In this document: one piece after another, positions 1 to 38,768 of the stretch
How the letters are laid out: the number at the start of each line of letters is the position of its first letter
Numbering within the stretch: position 1 is the first letter of the stretch
Sequence record: PV287714.1
Reading direction: 5' to 3' (one strand)
Source of the DNA: Escherichia phage HMD-9
DNA length: 64,000 bases
Translations under genes and position numbers: made by a program
The notes under the pieces: generated by a model
The model's input: the letters and a program-made list of their open reading frames with translations, nothing else
Database searches by the model: none
What the model was told of the DNA's origin: nothing

Positions 1-631
<631 letters not shown>

Positions 632-3723: not shown

Positions 3724-3791
3724 TTATTTCTCCGCTTCTGTGATTGTTTTGATAAATCTATAATAACACCGTCCTTGGCGTTTGTACACAA

Positions 3792-4055
3792 TTATTTCAT
3801 ATTATTGAAATATTCTTCTGCGATTTCGTCGTTATCATGGTAAACTTTAGAAGACAGTTTAACATAACCTTCAGCAGTGAACATGTTAATCACAACCTTT
3901 ACAGTATACCACTGACCGTCTTCATTACCCATTACTGCGTAAGTTTCAAACATCGGATGGTCAGGACCGATAACTTTAATATCATTCACTGTACGACCGA
4001 AATCTTCTGAAACGCATTTCATAAAGAAGTTGAACAGTTCGCCGTAATTATCCAT
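3792..4055 (-). CDS. hypothetical protein
   Basis: ORF-track start 4109 lies inside the upstream promoter; ATG at 4055 follows SD GGAGAATGAA (MDNYGELFNFF..). Confidence 0.5.
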   Translation of the reverse strand: MDNYGELFNFFMKCVSEDFGRTVNDIKVIGPDHPMFETYAVMGNEDGQWYTVKVVINMFTAEGYVKLSSKVYHDNDEIAEEYFNNMK

Positions 4056-4099
4056 TTCATTCTCCAAGTTGTTTTTCTGTATCAGTAGTTGATAGTTGT

Positions 4100-4129
4100 A
4101 TAGTACCACGGAAGAACATGGATGTAAAC
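4100..4129 (-). promoter_or_regulatory. T4 early-type sigma70 promoter (-35 GTTTAC, 18-nt spacer, -10 TACTAT)
   Basis: minus-sense GTTTAC-N18-TACTAT upstream of ORF 3792-4055. Confidence 0.5.
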
Positions 4130-4261
4130 AGTTTTGTGAAAAAAATTTTAAAAAGTTTTGGGGAATTCTAGGGCAGGGAGGGGCAATTAAAGGATAGGAT
4201 AATATATTATAAAGGATAGAAACTAAATGATGCCTAGAGAGGCCCAGAAAGGTCTAGATGC

Positions 4262-4288
4262 CAAAAAAGCCCTATCATTTAGATAGGG
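4262..4288 (-). terminator. rho-independent terminator after ORF 4297-4860
   Basis: hairpin CCCTATC/GATAGGG followed by U-run on the minus-sense transcript. Confidence 0.5.
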
Positions 4289-4296
4289 ATTTAAAA

Positions 4297-4860
4297 TTAT
4301 TTGCTTAGTTTAGTTATTATAGCTTCTGCGGCAGCTTTTAGCTTAGATGCGGTGTTAATACGATTTTTAATTTCAGTATACGCATCGCCAAGAACATCAA
4401 GGCTATCAGAATAAACACTTACACTATTGCGTTCGCTATTTGAAATAGAACCTTTAGTTTTACGATCAAAATCGGTATACACGTCTTGAAGATCGCGGGC
4501 TGCCTTCTTTGCATCATCCAATGCGTCAAGAGCTTTATTCAAAGCATTAACATATTTTTTAGTGTCAAACATATTCTTAGAAATTTTAACAGGTGCACGT
4601 TCAGGAGTAGCTAATGCAGATTTAGGAACCTGAGCGCCAGATGCCAATTTCTTAGAAATTTTGAAAAATGCTTTATTGAATTTATTTTCTTGACTCATTG
4701 TAAAAGAACTATTATCGATGTTGTACATTTCAATAGCTTTAGCTTTCCACTTAAGAAAATCGCCGCGGTCTTTTGGATCCAAGTGGAAGAATACTTTAGT
4801 AAGATCTGCTTCAGATGGTAATTTTGCTGCTTCGGTTAAAAATTCGGCATAGGTTTTCAT
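4297..4860 (-). CDS. internal-protein-like protein with capsid-targeting sequence
   Basis: 187 aa; N-terminus MKTYAEFLTE|AAKL fits the CTS pattern with a gp21-type cleavage context (LxE). Confidence 0.65.
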   Translation of the reverse strand: MKTYAEFLTEAAKLPSEADLTKVFFHLDPKDRGDFLKWKAKAIEMYNIDNSSFTMSQENKFNKAFFKISKKLASGAQVPKSALATPERAPVKISKNMFDTKKYVNALNKALDALDDAKKAARDLQDVYTDFDRKTKGSISNSERNSVSVYSDSLDVLGDAYTEIKNRINTASKLKAAAEAIITKLSK

Positions 4861-4949
4861 TTAAAATCCTTGAAATAATTTATCGGTTGGTTATTAATTA
4901 TTTATTACTTTGTTATTATCCGTAACAGCATTCTCTATGTGATTCAAAC

Positions 4950-4977
4950 TAAAAAGCCCTAACCTTTCGGTCAGGGT
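4950..4977 (-). terminator. rho-independent terminator (GAAA tetraloop hairpin plus U-run)
   Basis: minus-sense CCCUGACC-GAAA-GGUUAGGG then CUUUUU; near-identical to the hairpin at 5509-5536. Confidence 0.6.
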
Positions 4978-4985
4978 TAAGAATG

Positions 4986-5459
4986 TTATTTGATTTGTTT
5001 AGCAGACCAAATGCGGTCTTTAATAATTTTTTGGATGTCTTCAACATACTCTAGGTCATGAGCATGTGGGTTGTCTTTGAAACTATAAGCACGGGCTAAC
5101 TTTTGGCCTTCGGTTTTGATTACTAAAAGCTCTTTAAGGATAGCTTCATATTTAGCGATAATTCCTTTAACAATATTTTTTTCTTGTGCAGCTTTAGGAT
5201 CCGCTTTAGGAGCAGGTTTACCGGAAGGTTTTTCGAAAGCCGCACCAGTAGCAACCAGGCTTTTCCAGGCGGTGGTAACATAGTTACCCACAAAGCCTTC
5301 AGCTCTCATATCGTCGTAGAACTTGTACCGGGATTCGTCAGAAGCATCTTTATAAGAATATTTACCAGCTTTAATAGCAGCAGTTGCTACAGCGCGAACA
5401 TCTGAAGCGGATGCTTCATTTAACGCCACTTCATTTAAAAATTGAGCATATGATTTCAT
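4986..5459 (-). CDS. internal-protein-like protein with capsid-targeting sequence
   Basis: 157 aa; N-terminus MKSYAQFLNE|VALNE fits the CTS pattern. Confidence 0.65.
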   Translation of the reverse strand: MKSYAQFLNEVALNEASASDVRAVATAAIKAGKYSYKDASDESRYKFYDDMRAEGFVGNYVTTAWKSLVATGAAFEKPSGKPAPKADPKAAQEKNIVKGIIAKYEAILKELLVIKTEGQKLARAYSFKDNPHAHDLEYVEDIQKIIKDRIWSAKQIK

Positions 5460-5499
5460 CTTATTTCCTGTTTTAATTCGTGATTTAATACACTACTAT

Positions 5500-5507
5500 A
5501 TTTATAC
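5500..5507 (-). promoter_or_regulatory. T4 late promoter core TATAAATA
   Basis: minus-sense TATAAATA about 40 nt upstream of ATG 5459. Confidence 0.55.
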
Positions 5508-5508
5508 T

Positions 5509-5536
5509 AAAAAGCCCCAACCTTTCGGTCGGGGCT
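5509..5536 (-). terminator. rho-independent terminator ending the tRNA operon
   Basis: minus-sense CCCCGACC-GAAA-GGUUGGGG then CUUUUU. Confidence 0.6.
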
Positions 5537-5584
5537 AAGCCTTGCGGCAACCTTGTCGGGGTTCCACCTGCTAAGGCAAGTGTT

Positions 5585-5846
5585 TGTACGAAACGCCGGG
5601 ATTCGAACCCGGTTATTAAGCAGTTGACGCTACTCAATATTTTAAAAGGCCATATCTCGACCATATCCGAACGTTCCGTCAAAAACGCTACTCGGCTTAC
5701 GGCAAAGATATTTCCTCGAATCGATAATTCGGTGCGCCGTTTCAGCTGTGATAGTAAAGAACCAGAACACAGTAAAACTGTGGGAGGAACTATACTCCAT
5801 GGAACATCAGTCCGACGACTTACCGGTAGCGACCCGGTTTCTTGTT
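5585..5846 (-). ncRNA. ORF-free structured tract inside the tRNA operon; candidate stable small RNA(s) (T4 species 1/2-like)
   Basis: canonical T-arm CCGGGTTCGAATCCCGG at 5596-5612; 3' strand CGTTTCG can pair with TGAAACG about 150 nt upstream; bounded by tRNA-Arg and the operon terminator. Confidence 0.35.
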
Positions 5847-5922
5847 TGGTCGAGGCAGTAGGGGTCGAACCTACGACCTAGGACTTAGAAGGTCCTTGCT
5901 CTTCCTTCTGAGCTATGCCTCG
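5847..5922 (-). tRNA. tRNA-Arg (anticodon UCU)
   Basis: cloverleaf by hand: acceptor CGAGGCA/TGCCTCG, D-arm GCTC..GAGC, anticodon loop CTTCTAA, T-arm GTAGG-TTCGACC-CCTAC, CCA encoded. Confidence 0.85.
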
Positions 5923-5926
5923 GATT

Positions 5927-6001
5927 TGGCGGACATGCATGGATTCGAACCATGGACCAATTGATTAACAGTCAACTGCTCTACCACTGAGCTACACATC
6001 C
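5927..6001 (-). tRNA. tRNA-Asn (anticodon GUU)
   Basis: acceptor GGATGTG/CATGTCC (two G-U pairs), D-arm GCTC-AGTGGTA-GAGC, anticodon loop CTGTTAA, T-arm CATGG-TTCGAAT-CCATG, CCA encoded. Confidence 0.75.
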
Positions 6002-6005
6002 AAAT

Positions 6006-6092
6006 TGGTGGGGAGTGATGGAGTCGAACCACCCGAGTCGCAATGACAATGGATTTACAGTCCACACCGCTACCTCTACGGGATAACTCCCC
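6006..6092 (-). tRNA. tRNA-like gene, probable type-II tRNA-Tyr (anticodon GUA) with irregular D-arm
   Basis: acceptor GGGGAGT/ACTCCCC, anticodon stem-loop TGGA-CTGTAAA-TCCA, long variable arm, T-arm GGTGG-TTCGACT-CCATC, CCA encoded; D-arm pairing is non-canonical. Confidence 0.5.
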
Positions 6093-6101
6093 TAATTAAT
6101 T

Positions 6102-6176
6102 TGGTGGCCCTGGGTGGAATTGAACCACCATCTGGCGATTATGAGTCGCTTGCTTGAACCTTCCAGCTACAGGGCC
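6102..6176 (-). tRNA. tRNA with anticodon CAU (Ile2/lysidine type by T4 position; Met not excluded)
   Basis: acceptor GGCCCTG/CAGGGCC, anticodon loop CTCATAA, T-arm GGTGG-TTCAATT-CCACC, CCA encoded; 1 nt from tRNA-Thr. Confidence 0.8.
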
Positions 6177-6177
6177 T

Positions 6178-6253
6178 TGGTGCTGATTGACGGAATCGAA
6201 CCGCCGACCTTCTCATTACAAGTGAGTTGCTCTACCTACTGAGCTAAATCAGC
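6178..6253 (-). tRNA. tRNA-Thr (anticodon UGU)
   Basis: acceptor GCTGATT/AATCAGC, D-arm GCTC-AGTAGGTA-GAGC, anticodon loop CTTGTAA, CCA encoded. Confidence 0.85.
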
Positions 6254-6258
6254 AAAAC

Positions 6259-6348
6259 TGGCGGAGGCGATAGGATTTGAACCTATGAGTCGCCGGAGCG
6301 ACTGCCGGTTTTCAAGACCGGTGCATTAAACCACTCTGCCACGCCTCC
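6259..6348 (-). tRNA. tRNA-Ser (anticodon UGA), type II
   Basis: acceptor GGAGGCG/CGCCTCC, anticodon loop CTTGAAA, long variable arm, T-arm ATAGG-TTCAAAT-CCTAT, CCA encoded. Confidence 0.85.
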
Positions 6349-6350
6349 AG

Positions 6351-6424
6351 TCTCCGTGGCAGGATTTGAACCTGCGACATTCTGCTCCCAAAGCAGACGC
6401 TCTACCAAACTGAGCTACACGGAG
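6351..6424 (-). tRNA. tRNA-Pro (anticodon UGG)
   Basis: acceptor CTCCGTG/CACGGAG, D-arm GCTC-AGTTTGGTA-GAGC, anticodon loop TTTGGGA, T-arm GCAGG-TTCAAAT-CCTGC; CCA not encoded; 2 nt from tRNA-Ser. Confidence 0.85.
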
Positions 6425-6434
6425 TAAATTAAAT

Positions 6435-6508
<74 letters not shown>

Positions 6509-6513
6509 AAATT

Positions 6514-6600
6514 TGGTGCGAGAAGTGGGACTCGAACCCACAAGGAAATCATTCCGCAGCATTTTAAGTGCTGTGCCTTTACCAATTTGACCATTCTCGC
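6514..6600 (-). tRNA. tRNA-Leu (anticodon UAA), type II
   Basis: acceptor GCGAGAA/TTCTCGC, anticodon stem-loop CAGCA-CTTAAAA-TGCTG, long variable arm, T-arm GTGGG-TTCGAGT-CCCAC, CCA encoded. Confidence 0.85.
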
Positions 6601-6601
6601 G

Positions 6602-6674
6602 CTGGGAATAAAGGACTCGAACCTTTGCATCTAGCAGTCAAAGTGCTATGCCTTACCAACTTGGCTAATTCCCA
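6602..6674 (-). tRNA. tRNA-Gln (anticodon UUG)
   Basis: acceptor TGGGAAT/ATTCCCA, anticodon stem-loop TAGCA-CTTTGAC-TGCTA, T-arm AAAGG-TTCGAGT-CCTTT; CCA not encoded; 1 nt from tRNA-Leu. Confidence 0.85.
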
Positions 6675-7632: not shown

Positions 7633-7651
7633 TTTATTCTCCTCTGTAGTT

Positions 7652-7679
7652 GATAGGGTAATAGTATCACTACCCTATC
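7652..7679. repeat. stem-loop GATAGGGTA-N10-TACCCTATC of a promoter/stem-loop cassette, copy 1 (complete)
   Basis: perfect 9-bp inverted repeat around ATAGTATCAC; partial copies at 8033-8060 and 8372-8399. Confidence 0.6.
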
Positions 7680-7690
7680 TAAAAGTAAAC
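7661..7690 (-). promoter_or_regulatory. T4 early-type promoter (GTTTAC-N18-TACTAT)
   Basis: minus-sense -35 GTTTAC (7690-7685) and -10 TACTAT (7666-7661) upstream of ORF 7447-7632. Confidence 0.55.
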
Positions 7691-7702
7691 TGTTTTTATA
7701 AA

Positions 7703-8011
7703 CTATTTTATTCCGCGTGATGCAATTGTATTCTGTCGTTTAGCACCAGTTTGTTTAAAGTCATGATTGTCGATTTGATCGGTACGAGCAACTCCGAATG
7801 ATGATTTAATCTTAGCTTTAGATCCTTTAGTTATAGAAATAAACATCTCGGAAGCCCCTTTCTTAAAGTCCGAAGCAATTACTTCAACACCGTTCTTAGC
7901 AAGTGACTTCAGAATTGCCTCCGCGTACTCATCATCAAGACTCGCTTGAGTATTAATAACGAATGTCTTTGGTGCAGCCGCTTCATTGATAAATTCTTTA
8001 AATGTTTTCAT
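7703..8011 (-). CDS. internal-protein-like protein with capsid-targeting sequence (ipI locus)
   Basis: 102 aa; MKTFKEFINE|AAAPKTF fits the CTS pattern; lies between the tRNA operon and 57B where T4 carries ipI. Confidence 0.6.
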   Translation of the reverse strand: MKTFKEFINEAAAPKTFVINTQASLDDEYAEAILKSLAKNGVEVIASDFKKGASEMFISITKGSKAKIKSSFGVARTDQIDNHDFKQTGAKRQNTIASRGIK

Positions 8012-8041
8012 TTTATTTTCCTAATTAATTTTGATGAGATA

Positions 8042-8071
8042 ATAGTATCACTACCCTATCTAAAAGTAAAC
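8042..8071 (-). promoter_or_regulatory. T4 early-type promoter (GTTTAC-N18-TACTAT), cassette copy 2
   Basis: same spacing and hexamers as 7661-7690; upstream of ORF 7703-8011. Confidence 0.55.
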
Positions 8072-8344
8072 TCATTTTAAATAAATTGCGTATTTTTTAT
8101 AGCCACCAGGCTCGTGTCGAAGACCCCTATCATTAGCAAAACGCTCAATGTTGTTAATTTGATTCTGGTCAAGTTCAGAGATGTCAAACACGAAATAGTT
8201 ACGTTTGTTACCAACTGTTACATAGTCAGTTAAATCAATACCATATAGGTAATTGATGTCAGCAATCATAGTCTTGACAGCTTTGCTAATTTTTACTTTT
8301 TCGTTAAAAGTAGCTTCATTGATAAATTCTTTAAATGTTTTCAT
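8072..8344 (-). CDS. internal-protein-like protein with capsid-targeting sequence (ipI locus)
   Basis: ORF-track start 8356 is TTG; ATG at 8344 follows SD GGAGAATAAA giving MKTFKEFINE|ATFNEK.. Confidence 0.6.
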   Translation of the reverse strand: MKTFKEFINEATFNEKVKISKAVKTMIADINYLYGIDLTDYVTVGNKRNYFVFDISELDQNQINNIERFANDRGLRHEPGGYKKYAIYLK

Positions 8345-8380
8345 TTTATTCTCCAATCACTCATTTGTTTTGATAGGGTA

Positions 8381-8410
8381 ATAGTATCACAACTAAAACC
8401 CCGTGTAAAC
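8381..8410 (-). promoter_or_regulatory. T4 early-type promoter (GTTTAC-N18-TACTAT), cassette copy 3
   Basis: same spacing and hexamers; upstream of ORF 8072-8344. Confidence 0.55.
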
Positions 8411-8422
8411 AACTTTGTGAAA

Positions 8423-9119
<697 letters not shown>

Positions 9120-36865: not shown

Positions 36866-37290
36866 TGCTTCTGATCCCTGAAACTCATGAATTAGTTCTC
36901 GAGCATGTCGAAGCACTTATTCCTGAAGCACAGGGTCGCTTTGACGAATTGTCTTCTGCTTTAAATAAAGACGATATAAATACAATTGTCGAGAATATGC
37001 TTGATGATGAAACTGATTTAGCAGTTGCATTAGCTTCTATTAATGAAAATATGCCGTTAAATGAATTCATTGTTAAGCATGTTTCAGCTCGTGGTGAAAT
37101 TACACGTACTAAAGACCGCAAAACACGCGAACGTAATGCATTTCAAACCACTGGGCTGTCTAAAGCAAAACGTAGACAAATTGCTCGCAAAGCTACCAAA
37201 ACGAAGATTGCCAATCCAGCAGGTCAATCTCGTGCTCAGCGTAAGCGTAAAAAAGCTCTTAAACGCCGTAAAGCATTAGGATTAAGCTAA
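36865..37290 (+). CDS. 68: gp68 prohead core protein
   Basis: 141 aa; basic C-terminus; size and order match T4. Confidence 0.8.
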
Positions 37291-37928
37291 TGAATGAACC
37301 CCAATTACTAATTGAAACTTGGGGTCAACCTGGCGAAATTATTGATGGTGTGCCAATGCTTGAATCCCACGATGGAAAAGACTTAGGTTTAAAGCCGGGT
37401 TTATACATCGAAGGAATATTCATGCAAGCAGAAGTCGTCAATAGAAATAAACGTCTTTATCCAAAACGCATATTAGAAAAAGCGGTAAAAGACTATATCA
37501 ATGAGCAAGTTTTAACTAAACAAGCTCTCGGAGAATTAAATCATCCTCCACGCGCTAATGTTGACCCGATGCAAGCCGCTATCATTATAGAAGATATGTG
37601 GTGGAAAGGAAATGACGTATACGGACGAGCTCGTGTTATTGAAGGTGACCACGGTCCTGGAGATAAATTAGCAGCTAATATTCGTGCCGGATGGATTCCA
37701 GGAGTTTCTTCTCGTGGATTAGGTTCATTGACTGACACAAATAAAGGTTATCGTATCGTAAACGAAGGATTCAAATTAACTGTAGGTGTTGATGCAGTAT
37801 GGGGTCCAAGTGCTCCAGATGCATGGGTAACTCCTAAGGAAATTACCGAATCACAGACGGCGGAAGCCGATACAAGTGCCGATGACGCCTATATGGCTCT
37901 CGCAGAGGCCATGAAAAAAGCGTTATAA
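37290..37928 (+). CDS. 21: gp21 prohead core protease
   Basis: 212 aa; size and order match T4. Confidence 0.9.
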   Translation: MNEPQLLIETWGQPGEIIDGVPMLESHDGKDLGLKPGLYIEGIFMQAEVVNRNKRLYPKRILEKAVKDYINEQVLTKQALGELNHPPRANVDPMQAAIIIEDMWWKGNDVYGRARVIEGDHGPGDKLAANIRAGWIPGVSSRGLGSLTDTNKGYRIVNEGFKLTVGVDAVWGPSAPDAWVTPKEITESQTAEADTSADDAYMALAEAMKKAL

Positions 37929-37958: not shown

Positions 37959-38768
37959 ATGCTTAAAGAACAACTGATTGCTGAAGCGCAAAAAATTGAT
38001 GCTTCCGTTGCTCTTGATAGTATTTTCGAATCAGTTAGTATTTCTCCGGAAGCAAAAGAAACTTTCGGCACTGTATTCGAAGCTACCGTCAAGCAGCACG
38101 CCGTTAAATTAGCTGAATCCCATATCGCTAAAATTGCTGAAAAAGCAGAAGAAGAAGTAGAAAAAAATAAAGAAGAAGCCGAAGAAAAAGCTGAGAAGAA
38201 AATCGCTGAGCAAGCTTCTAAATTCATTGACCATCTTGCGAAAGAATGGCTCGCTGAAAATAAATTAGCAGTTGATAAAGGCATCAAAGCCGAATTGTTT
38301 GAATCCATGCTTGGTGGATTAAAAGAGCTCTTTGTTGAACACAACGTTGTTGTTCCAGAAGAATCAGTTGATATTGTAGCTGAAATGGAAGAAGAGCTGC
38401 AAGAACATAAAGAAGAATCAGCTCGTCTGTTCGAAGAACTCAATATGCGCGACGCATATATCAATTATGTGCAGCGTGAAGTGGCATTGAGCGAAAGTAC
38501 TAAAGATCTGACTGAGTCTCAAAAAGAAAAAGTCTCTGCTCTGGTCGAAGGTATGGATTATTCAGATGAATTCTCAAATAAATTGAGTGCCATCGTAGAA
38601 ATGGTGAAGAAGTCTAATAAAGATGAAAGCACTATTACTGAGGGTATAAATACTCCTGATACTGAAGCAGCCGGACTGAATTTCGTCACTGAAGCTGTAG
38701 AAGATAAAGCTGCACCTGGTGCAGAAGATATTGTAAGTGTATATGCGAAAGTCGCATCTCGTTTCTAA
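37959..38768 (+). CDS. 22: gp22 prohead scaffold protein
   Basis: 269 aa, highly charged coiled-coil; size and order match T4. Confidence 0.9.
   Translation: MLKEQLIAEAQKIDASVALDSIFESVSISPEAKETFGTVFEATVKQHAVKLAESHIAKIAEKAEEEVEKNKEEAEEKAEKKIAEQASKFIDHLAKEWLAENKLAVDKGIKAELFESMLGGLKELFVEHNVVVPEESVDIVAEMEEELQEHKEESARLFEELNMRDAYINYVQREVALSESTKDLTESQKEKVSALVEGMDYSDEFSNKLSAIVEMVKKSNKDESTITEGINTPDTEAAGLNFVTEAVEDKAAPGAEDIVSVYAKVASRF

Follow-up and report, generated by a model that had tools for sequence, protein, structure and literature searches.

The 64,000-nt stretch of Escherichia phage HMD-9 analyzed here (PV287714.1; the whole of it is called the window below) is a segment of a T4-like (Tequatrovirus) genome, in which two adjacent open reading frames, ORF1 and ORF2, likely encode T4-type internal head proteins (IPs) at a locus of their own. 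The genes in this region are on the minus strand, in the order e (107-595), nudE, the e.2-e.8 block, ORF1 and ORF2, rnaC/rnaD, and ten tRNAs (5847-6674), followed by homologs of trna.2-4, two ip genes of the ipI locus (7703-8011 and 8072-8344), 57B, and head genes. The closest DNA matches of the window are Tequatroviruses of Escherichia, Shigella, Salmonella, and Yersinia, with 93-97.5% identity, and the database records for relatives of ORF1 and ORF2 are all labeled "hypothetical protein". The coordinates of both ORFs, given in an earlier note made from the letters of the sequence, proved exact. The two genes are organized as follows:

4297-4860, minus strand: ORF1, 187 residues, starting MKTYAEFLTE
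4831-4860, minus strand: leader of ORF1, MKTYAEFLTE
~4642-4830, minus strand: type-1 N-domain of ORF1
~4573-4641, minus strand: linker of ORF1
4300-4572, minus strand: C-terminal helical hairpin domain of ORF1, homologous to the C-domain of ORF2
4986-5459, minus strand: ORF2, 157 residues, starting MKSYAQFLNE
5430-5459, minus strand: leader of ORF2, MKSYAQFLNE, with a second cleavage motif, LNE before A, at residues 13-15
~5226-5429, minus strand: variable three-helix N-domain of ORF2
~5181-5225, minus strand: Pro/Ala/Lys linker of ORF2
4989-5180, minus strand: conserved C-terminal helical domain of ORF2

The leaders conform to the capsid targeting sequence (CTS) of the T4 type, a ~10-residue N-terminal propeptide resembling MKTYQEFIAE, in which, according to the mutagenesis of IPIII by Mullaney and Black, residues 4 and 7 determine targeting and residues 8 and 10 determine processing (PMC9026906). 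ORF1 and ORF2 both retain all four determinants (Y4, F7, L8, and E10), and the CTS that had been noticed in them looks genuine. The (L/I)-x-E site of the gp21 protease, at residues 8-10, reads L8-T-E10 in ORF1 and L8-N-E10 in ORF2. ORF2 possesses a second such site, L13-N-E15, and many other family members likewise have a second (L/I)xE, followed by A, 5-7 residues downstream of the first, which recalls the 19-residue propeptide of IPI. A search with the pattern M[KL][TSQE][YF]x[EQ]F[LI]xE returned five occurrences in the 64-kb window as opposed to none in 200 shuffles: the starts of ORF1 and ORF2, of the two ipI-locus genes, and of an ORF that runs from position 110 off the left edge. A slightly looser leader motif, M-x(1,2)-[YF]-x-[EQD]-[FVIL]-[LI]-x(1,2)-E, is kept in 20/20 family members from six genera, the bodies of which are 20-60% identical, falling to ~20-30%. 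One could argue that the likeness of the leader is coincidental or vestigial and that ORF1 and ORF2, as late proteins of the ordinary kind, stay in the cytoplasm and do not enter the head, as would agree with the uniform "hypothetical protein" labels and with the absence of direct packaging evidence. We regard this explanation as highly improbable, given that the leader persists in all 20 members while the bodies diverge, that all four mapped positions are kept and the motif never arises in shuffled sequence, and that late timing and basic composition suit IPs.

The ORF at the left edge (minus strand) is itself of the CTS type. It occupies the ipIII position, with its ATG overlapping the stop codon of e (ATGA), and its body resembles IpV of phage PST (KLGMALAEAERLF). 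An extended leader, ES(I/V)LNEA, is common to this ORF, ORF2, and Ip9 of IME08.

The same genome encodes the machinery that would recognize and cleave the CTS of ORF1 and ORF2:

37290-37928, plus strand: gp21 prohead protease (Peptidase_S77, 1.5e-111)
37959-38768, plus strand: gp22 scaffold (T4_CASP, 5.5e-89)

The predicted mature products also have the composition of IPs: 19.7 kDa, isoelectric point (pI) 9.54, and 14.7% Lys for ORF1, and 16.3 kDa, pI 9.22, and 13.6% Lys for ORF2, compared with 20.4 kDa, pI 9.65, and 13.7% Lys for the processed IPIII* of T4 (pI ~9.6 and 13.7-15.6% Lys for T4 IPII and IPIII). In leader, processing site, composition, and accompanying gp21 and gp22 genes, both look like CTS-bearing internal proteins, and we conclude that ORF1 and ORF2 are very probably packaged and cleaved in the head.

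Beyond the leader the two proteins had been described as otherwise unrelated, which turned out to be wrong. Both match the phrog_2280 profile (PHROGs v4) end to end, ORF1 with E=1.4e-53 (residues 1-181 on profile positions 1-178) and ORF2 with E=2.3e-54 (residues 1-157 on positions 1-172). This family is labeled "unknown function", and the CTS, the predicted packaging in the head, and the existence of two types of N-domain are not recorded there. In a comparison of the ORF1 clade with the ORF2 clade by hhalign, carried out after removal of the first 16 residues, 82 C-terminal columns were aligned with 97% probability and E=1e-10 (3.7% for a reversed decoy), and the N-domains did not align. The link is not trivial to detect: pairwise BLASTP aligns the leaders only, the initial shallow hhalign runs gave 41-65% probability and became clear only after the ORF1 clade had been enlarged, and a phmmer search of 1.84 billion representatives with ORF1 found a single distant relative (P0024, 31% identity, E=4e-6), so that single-sequence searches cannot connect the two. 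Usable profiles were obtained with members from other genera (Yersinia phage fHe-Yen9-01 gp154/gp153, Klebsiella phage KpnM6E1 gp123, IME08 orf129, KMB19, and P0026-P0037). Judging from these profile comparisons, ORF1 and ORF2 are diverged paralogs of one old, unnamed family, which differ in their N-domains only. The annotation of an RB14 protein as "similar to RB69ORF148c and 149c" was considered as evidence of paralogy and rejected, as these are the two halves of a frameshifted ORF1.

The architecture shared by the family thus comprises the CTS, a variable N-domain of at least two types, a Pro/Ala/Lys linker, and a conserved helical C-domain. The linker is evidently flexible in length, since in ORF1 of Shigella phage CT01 (record L009, 1501-1989) 25 linker residues are deleted in frame (162 vs 187 residues in total). 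The AlphaFold2 (AF2) model of ORF2 is all-helical with a flexible leader and a predicted local distance difference test score (pLDDT) of 79. In the model of ORF1 the order of helices is the same, and the C-terminal hairpin is better modeled than the protein as a whole (block means of 58-79 over residues 101-187). The fold is a generic helical bundle and as such uninformative. We found no relative of either protein in the PDB, IPI* included, and Pfam searches with the two ORFs yielded only sub-threshold noise (e.g. cytochrome b562 at 17 bits vs a cutoff of 30).

The coiled-coil-like conserved C-domain is akin in character to helical scaffold proteins, and this raises the question of whether ORF1 and ORF2 could be accessory components of the scaffold or core of the prohead, with the C-terminal hairpin binding gp22 or gp23; the proteins would afterwards be broken down or stay behind, with no function in the next host. 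Binding of a CTS to the scaffold core, the presence of genes for gp21 and gp22, and an (L/I)xE site within ORF2, at residue 108, would all fit. Nonetheless, such a role appears very unlikely: the genes are absent from T2, T4, T6, and PST, whose heads assemble normally, they are frameshifted in RB69 and F26, and ORF1 has no internal gp21 motif.

Analysis of sequence divergence along ORF2 sets its N-domain apart as well. In the comparison with SA21RB, the codons of the N-domain (~5235-5414) are 68-75% identical, whereas the leader and the C-domain are 90-100% identical, i.e. the N-domain forms an island of divergence with ~70% nucleotide identity within flanks of 95-100%. Pairwise nonsynonymous (dN) and synonymous (dS) divergence of ORF2 from SA21RB and RB27, calculated according to Nei and Gojobori, was as follows:

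N-domain of ORF2: dS 1.09 vs SA21RB and 0.08 vs RB27; dN/dS 0.19-0.24
C-domain of ORF2: dS 0.18 vs SA21RB and 0.63 vs RB27; dN/dS 0.03-0.06

The opposite order of the dS values in the two domains indicates that ORF2 is a recombinant of an RB27-type N-domain with a SA21RB-type C-domain. Both domains are constrained, with the N-domain evolving several-fold faster in relative terms. Purifying selection acts on both genes, and ORF2 is a mosaic within the gene, its N-domain being the part that evolves fast.

These data bear on the possibility that ORF1 and ORF2 are packaged but generic, i.e. that they are lysine-rich polycations, which neutralize or organize the DNA or aid its ejection and have no specific target among host defenses. 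Their bulk properties are those of IPII and IPIII (pI 9.2-9.5, 13.6-14.7% Lys), the lysines of IPs contact DNA phosphates (PMC3012670), and both the strong conservation of the C-domain and the near-invariance of ORF1 would be expected of such proteins, as would the uninformative helical fold. A purely generic role nevertheless seems unlikely to us, as it accounts neither for the divergence island and the domain-level mosaicism, nor for the maintenance of two types of N-domain, nor for the frequent loss of the genes in the laboratory-adapted T2, T4, and T6; moreover, all three Ips of T4 proved to be specific inhibitors after having once been regarded as generic (PMC12373910).

Rearranged copies of the genes were also encountered. 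In F26 (record L010, 1764-2354) the e.8 promoter region is genuinely duplicated in tandem, which has generated a fusion ORF, e.8'-ORF1', and ORF2 is frameshifted. Chimeric ORFs in which pieces of ORF1 or ORF2 are joined to nudE, a trna.3-like gene, or e.8 are present in metagenome and Logan assemblies (P0010, P0011, P0021, P0022, and P0025), and these are either natural deletion/duplication variants of a hyperplastic region or assembly chimeras.

The genes are delimited by hairpins and preceded by the following expression signals:

5509-5536, minus strand: hairpin A, intrinsic terminator of the tRNA/rnaC/rnaD operon (10-bp stem, GAAA loop, T-run)
5499-5506, minus strand: T4-type late promoter TATAAATA of ORF2, ~40 nt upstream of the ATG
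5464-5469, minus strand: ribosome-binding site of ORF2, AGGAAA
4951-4978, minus strand: hairpin B, terminator after ORF2, a copy that differs from hairpin A by 3 substitutions
4941-4950, minus strand: AGTTTGAATC, a decayed version of the AGTATAAATA junction, after hairpin B
4899-4906, minus strand: AATAAATA, candidate promoter of ORF1, 7/8 match to the late promoter
4867-4871, minus strand: ribosome-binding site of ORF1, AAGGA
4263-4288, minus strand: hairpin C, terminator that ends ORF1; its stem (CCCTATC/GATAGGG) is diverged, and its downstream flank, GCTTTTTTGGCATCTAGACC, is of the T4 type

Hairpins A and B, each of 28 nt with a GAAA tetraloop and a T-tail, are indeed near-identical terminators, as had been claimed. 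One of the three mismatches between them is due to a compensatory change from a C-G to a T-A pair, none are expected by chance (100 shuffles), and both score as intrinsic terminators, with folding energies of -20.3 kcal/mol (z ~-3.3) for A and -14.3 kcal/mol (z ~-3.4) for B. In six copies of the GAAA-type hairpin from different phages the stem is kept, with compensatory double changes in 2/10 pairs, albeit in a small sample. Hairpin A represents the upstream copy of a direct repeat that bounds the cassettes and corresponds to the single hairpin of T4, and hairpin C, overlooked in the earlier note, marks the downstream boundary of the DNA that is extra relative to T4.

The late promoter of ORF2 (placed one base off, at 5500-5507, in the earlier note) overlaps the tail of hairpin A (GCTTTTTAGTATAAATA), so that the final ...GTAT of the tail is continued by AAATA (GGGGCTTTTTAGTAT followed by AAATA). 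This junction is shared with RB27, IME08, KMB19, and KpnM6E1, and the annotation of SA21RB calls it a late promoter. Exact TATAAATA occurs in the slot region only at 5499-5506; the proposed cassette of hairpin, promoter, and CTS leader therefore stands with regard to a canonical late promoter for ORF2, and fails in this respect for ORF1. The AATAAATA site at 4899-4906, a candidate for the promoter of ORF1, reads GATAAATA in CT01 and RB14, and AATAAATA itself is found at the homologous position of the ORF2 promoter in JK36. Elsewhere in the window, two exact TATAAATA motifs lie 13 bp apart at 609-629 (minus strand), directly upstream of gene e (lysozyme).

In the operon upstream of hairpin A, ARAGORN predicts a 94-nt "tRNA-Lys(ttt)" at 5586-5679 (minus strand), for which the Rfam tRNA model makes no call; it is probably not a real tRNA, since its position corresponds to that of rnaC/rnaD of T4, which are tRNA-like stable RNAs. 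The tRNA set of the window (Arg, Asn, Tyr, Met, Thr, Ser, Pro, Gly, Leu, and Gln) differs from that of T4 by the absence of Ile and segB and the addition of Asn, Tyr, and Met.

Comparison with other phages revealed a variable occupancy of the slot between rnaC and e.8. T4, as stated in the earlier note, has no ip gene here, only a gene-free gap of 284 bp from e.8 to rnaC with one hairpin. In BLASTN comparisons, T4 aligns with the window up to position 4288 and again from 5504, and the ~30-bp hairpin is common to both alignments; the operon terminator is thus present as a direct repeat on either side of the extra DNA. The order is hairpin A - ORF2 - hairpin B - ORF1 - hairpin C in the window and hairpin - ORF2 - hairpin in RB27. 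The slot is empty in T4, T2, T6, RB3, RB5, RB55, RB59, and PST, it contains only ORF2 in RB27 and only ORF1 in CT01, RB14, and RB69 (frameshifted in the latter, where the reference annotates the pieces as ORF148c and ORF149c), and it contains both genes in the window and, among the 127 records with coverage of 80% or more of 4100-5700, in the majority. The phage collection has 511 records with ORF2-type genes, down to ~53% identity, and 164 with ORF1, with 350 in the wider type-1 clade. The same arrangement, i.e. the operon terminator hairpin, TATAAATA, a CTS gene of this family, a terminator, and the early promoter of e.8, is conserved in six genera of Tevenvirinae:

RB27: Tequatrovirus
JK36 and RB69: Mosigvirus
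IME08: Dhakavirus
KMB19: Karamvirus
KpnM6E1: Jiaodavirus
fHe-Yen9-01: Tegunavirus

In fHe-Yen9-01 (record L005, 1922-3037) the type-1 (gp154) and type-2 (gp153) genes are adjacent in the order opposite to that of the window; only 9 bp, and no hairpin, lie between them, and a single upstream hairpin with TATAAATA serves both.

This distribution speaks against the view, taken in the earlier note, that the ORFs had been inserted at this site. Because family members sit in the same arrangement after the tRNA/rnaC operon in six genera, the empty site of T4 is most likely the derived state, and T2, T4, T6, and PST most likely lost the genes via recombination between the flanking hairpin repeats. The single hairpin of T4 is the remnant expected from such an event, and we conclude that the family has long been part of Tevenvirinae and that the laboratory T-even phages have lost it. 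The opposite scenario, in which the cassettes were recently inserted into the lineage of this phage rather than lost from that of T4, would be compatible with the at least 95% identity of ORF1 in nearly all its carriers. A 1.2-kb block from e.8 to ORF1 (window 3783-4981) is also 94.6% identical to that of the Mosigvirus RB69 (record L014, 6917-8112), while the neighboring tRNA-Arg region is only ~76% identical, which points to a recent horizontal, inter-genus movement of at least ORF1. Taking the 97% match to RB69 as a sign of the ORF1 cassette moving alone was rejected, as the shared block also includes e.8. For the slot as a whole, we consider recent insertion quite unlikely in view of the common hairpin, TATAAATA, and CTS arrangement in Tequatro-, Mosig-, Dhaka-, Karam-, Jiaoda-, and Tegunavirus, the divergence and abundance of ORF2-type genes, and the remnant hairpin of T4; loss from the T4 lineage thus remains the preferred history. 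The notion of a swappable cassette holds insofar as the unit is bounded by hairpins and occurs in four states of occupancy, but it does not carry arbitrary cargo behind a shared leader: what is exchanged appears to be mainly the N-domain, together with the presence or absence of whole genes.

Taken together, these results can be accommodated by the following scenario. The hairpin at the end of the operon would stop early and middle transcription, and the late promoter fused to its tail would express the genes during prohead assembly, ORF2 from TATAAATA and ORF1 from an ATAAATA variant or by read-through. The 10-residue CTS, with an aromatic residue at position 4 and Phe at position 7, would dock the proteins on the gp22 scaffold core, where gp21 would cut after Glu10 at (L/I)xE, and in ORF2 perhaps also after Glu15. 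The basic, lysine-rich products (~20 and 16 kDa) would then stay with the DNA and be ejected into the next host, in which the N-domain would be the likely specificity module against a host defense, probably a modification-dependent nuclease by analogy with Ip1-3. Homologous recombination between the directly repeated terminator hairpins would be able to delete, add, or swap cassettes. That ORF1 and ORF2 are T4-type internal (injected) head proteins at a third ip locus, with this mechanism, is in our opinion reasonably likely.

Several observations weigh against this interpretation. We found neither virion proteomics nor N-terminal sequencing in the literature for any member of the family, including fPS-90 and fHe-Yen9-01, and as sources of virion proteomics phiR1-RT (homolog absent) and fHy-Eco03 (not T4-like) yielded nothing. 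ORF1 lacks a canonical late promoter and would depend on AATAAATA or on read-through of hairpin B, its AF2 model is poor (pLDDT 58), and it is at least 95% identical in 163/164 records, which is not arms-race-like. Pairwise dN/dS is below 1 everywhere, i.e. positive selection is not demonstrated, and truncated or frameshifted copies recur (P0019, P0020, F26, and RB69), so that the genes are dispensable in some settings. The bodies of ORF1 and ORF2 have no similarity to IPI, IPII, IPIII, IpV, IpVI, Ip9, or the other ip genes of the window, and leaderless BLASTP searches against T4 IPI, IPII, and IPIII gave nothing better than E=2.4. Finally, of ip1-10, which were tested, ip4-10 had no GmrSD target found (PMC12373910), and not every Ip therefore need inhibit GmrSD.

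With regard to function, the suggestion that the two proteins are candidate injected anti-defense proteins is reasonable, because all three Ips of T4, once thought to be generic, are specific inhibitors, with Ip1, Ip2, and Ip3 each blocking a different GmrSD type IV enzyme (PMC12373910). By this analogy, the chance of an anti-defense role of ORF1 and ORF2 is close to even, if slightly under it, and a target of the GmrSD type is unlikely. For five more GmrSD systems that are active, no inhibitor is known (Silas et al. 2025, PMC12373910); neither the ORF1 nor the ORF2 leader sequence occurs in the part of the supplement text of that paper available to us. A broader proposal would be that of a conserved third injected-protein locus in Tevenvirinae, in which a constant C-terminal helical "chassis" is combined with a rapidly exchanged N-terminal specificity domain into modular effectors against host defenses that lack a known phage inhibitor (e.g. 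the five GmrSD clusters), with the exchange driven by a late-promoter/terminator analog of the promoter-early stem-loops (PeSLs) discussed below; as a whole, it is doubtful.

Injected internal proteins act before the expression of any phage gene, and current accounts recognize two ip loci (PMC12373910). The family and the locus described here are new and unnamed, of a well-known kind, namely that of the T4-type Ips. The family is carried by hundreds of sequenced therapeutic and environmental T4-like phages, in which it is uniformly annotated as "hypothetical", and its absence from the three laboratory T-even phages is probably the reason why it has been overlooked. ORF1 and ORF2 are concrete and cheap candidates to be assayed against orphan defense systems, their domain architecture suggests which half holds the specificity, and phages in the four states of occupancy lend themselves to natural, isogenic-like comparisons in studies of host range.

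Among known systems, the closest are IPI, IPII, and IPIII of T4 and the polymorphic ip4-ip13 of T-even phages (Repoila et al. 1994; Mullaney & Black 1996; Silas et al. 2025, PMC12373910), with which ORF1 and ORF2 share the CTS determinants and the (L/I)xE site. In both cases the mature proteins are small, basic, and lysine-rich, and gp21 and gp22 are encoded in the same genome; the genes are non-essential, polymorphic in presence or absence among close relatives, and have bodies unrelated to other Ips. The locus is different, as ORF1 and ORF2 are situated between rnaC and e.8, while ipI is located between 57B and trna.4, and ipII and ipIII between denV and e. Furthermore, T4 ipI, ipII, and ipIII as well as the ipI-locus genes of the window have early-promoter sequences of the GTTTAC type upstream, whereas the slot of ORF1 and ORF2 has strictly a late promoter. 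Unlike the named Ips, ORF1 and ORF2 are absent from T2, T4, and T6 and are known here from sequence alone. IPs are not mentioned in Petrov 2010.

The organization of the slot resembles the PeSL and PmSL (promoter-early and promoter-middle stem-loop) cassettes, through which T4-like phages shuffle their modules (Arbiol et al. 2010, PMC2839356; Comeau et al. 2014, PMC4122927) and in which, like here, a stem-loop and a promoter element are repeated on both sides of an accessory ORF. As with PeSLs, the empty allele keeps one copy, the indels fit excision or integration via the repeats, and a decayed promoter follows hairpin B. A late-promoter form of PeSL is mentioned in neither of these papers. 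The slot differs in that the terminator is followed by the late promoter TATAAATA instead of a sigma-70-like early or a Mot middle promoter, its hairpin is a G+C-rich intrinsic terminator with a GAAA tetraloop, and its repeat is not dispersed, having only two copies within 3 mismatches in 64 kb. Within the window at 7640-8430 (minus strand), the ipI-locus genes 7703-8011 (phrog_2667) and 8072-8344 (phrog_7673) each lie behind a PeSL-type element, an early promoter, GTTTAC...GTGATACTAT, in which an inverted repeat, GATAGGGTA/TACCCTATC, is embedded, and a third copy is located at 7650-7700. The same phage displays textbook PeSL elements (GTTTAC...TACTAT and a stem-loop) at the ipI locus, in contrast to the module of terminator and late promoter between rnaC and e.8.

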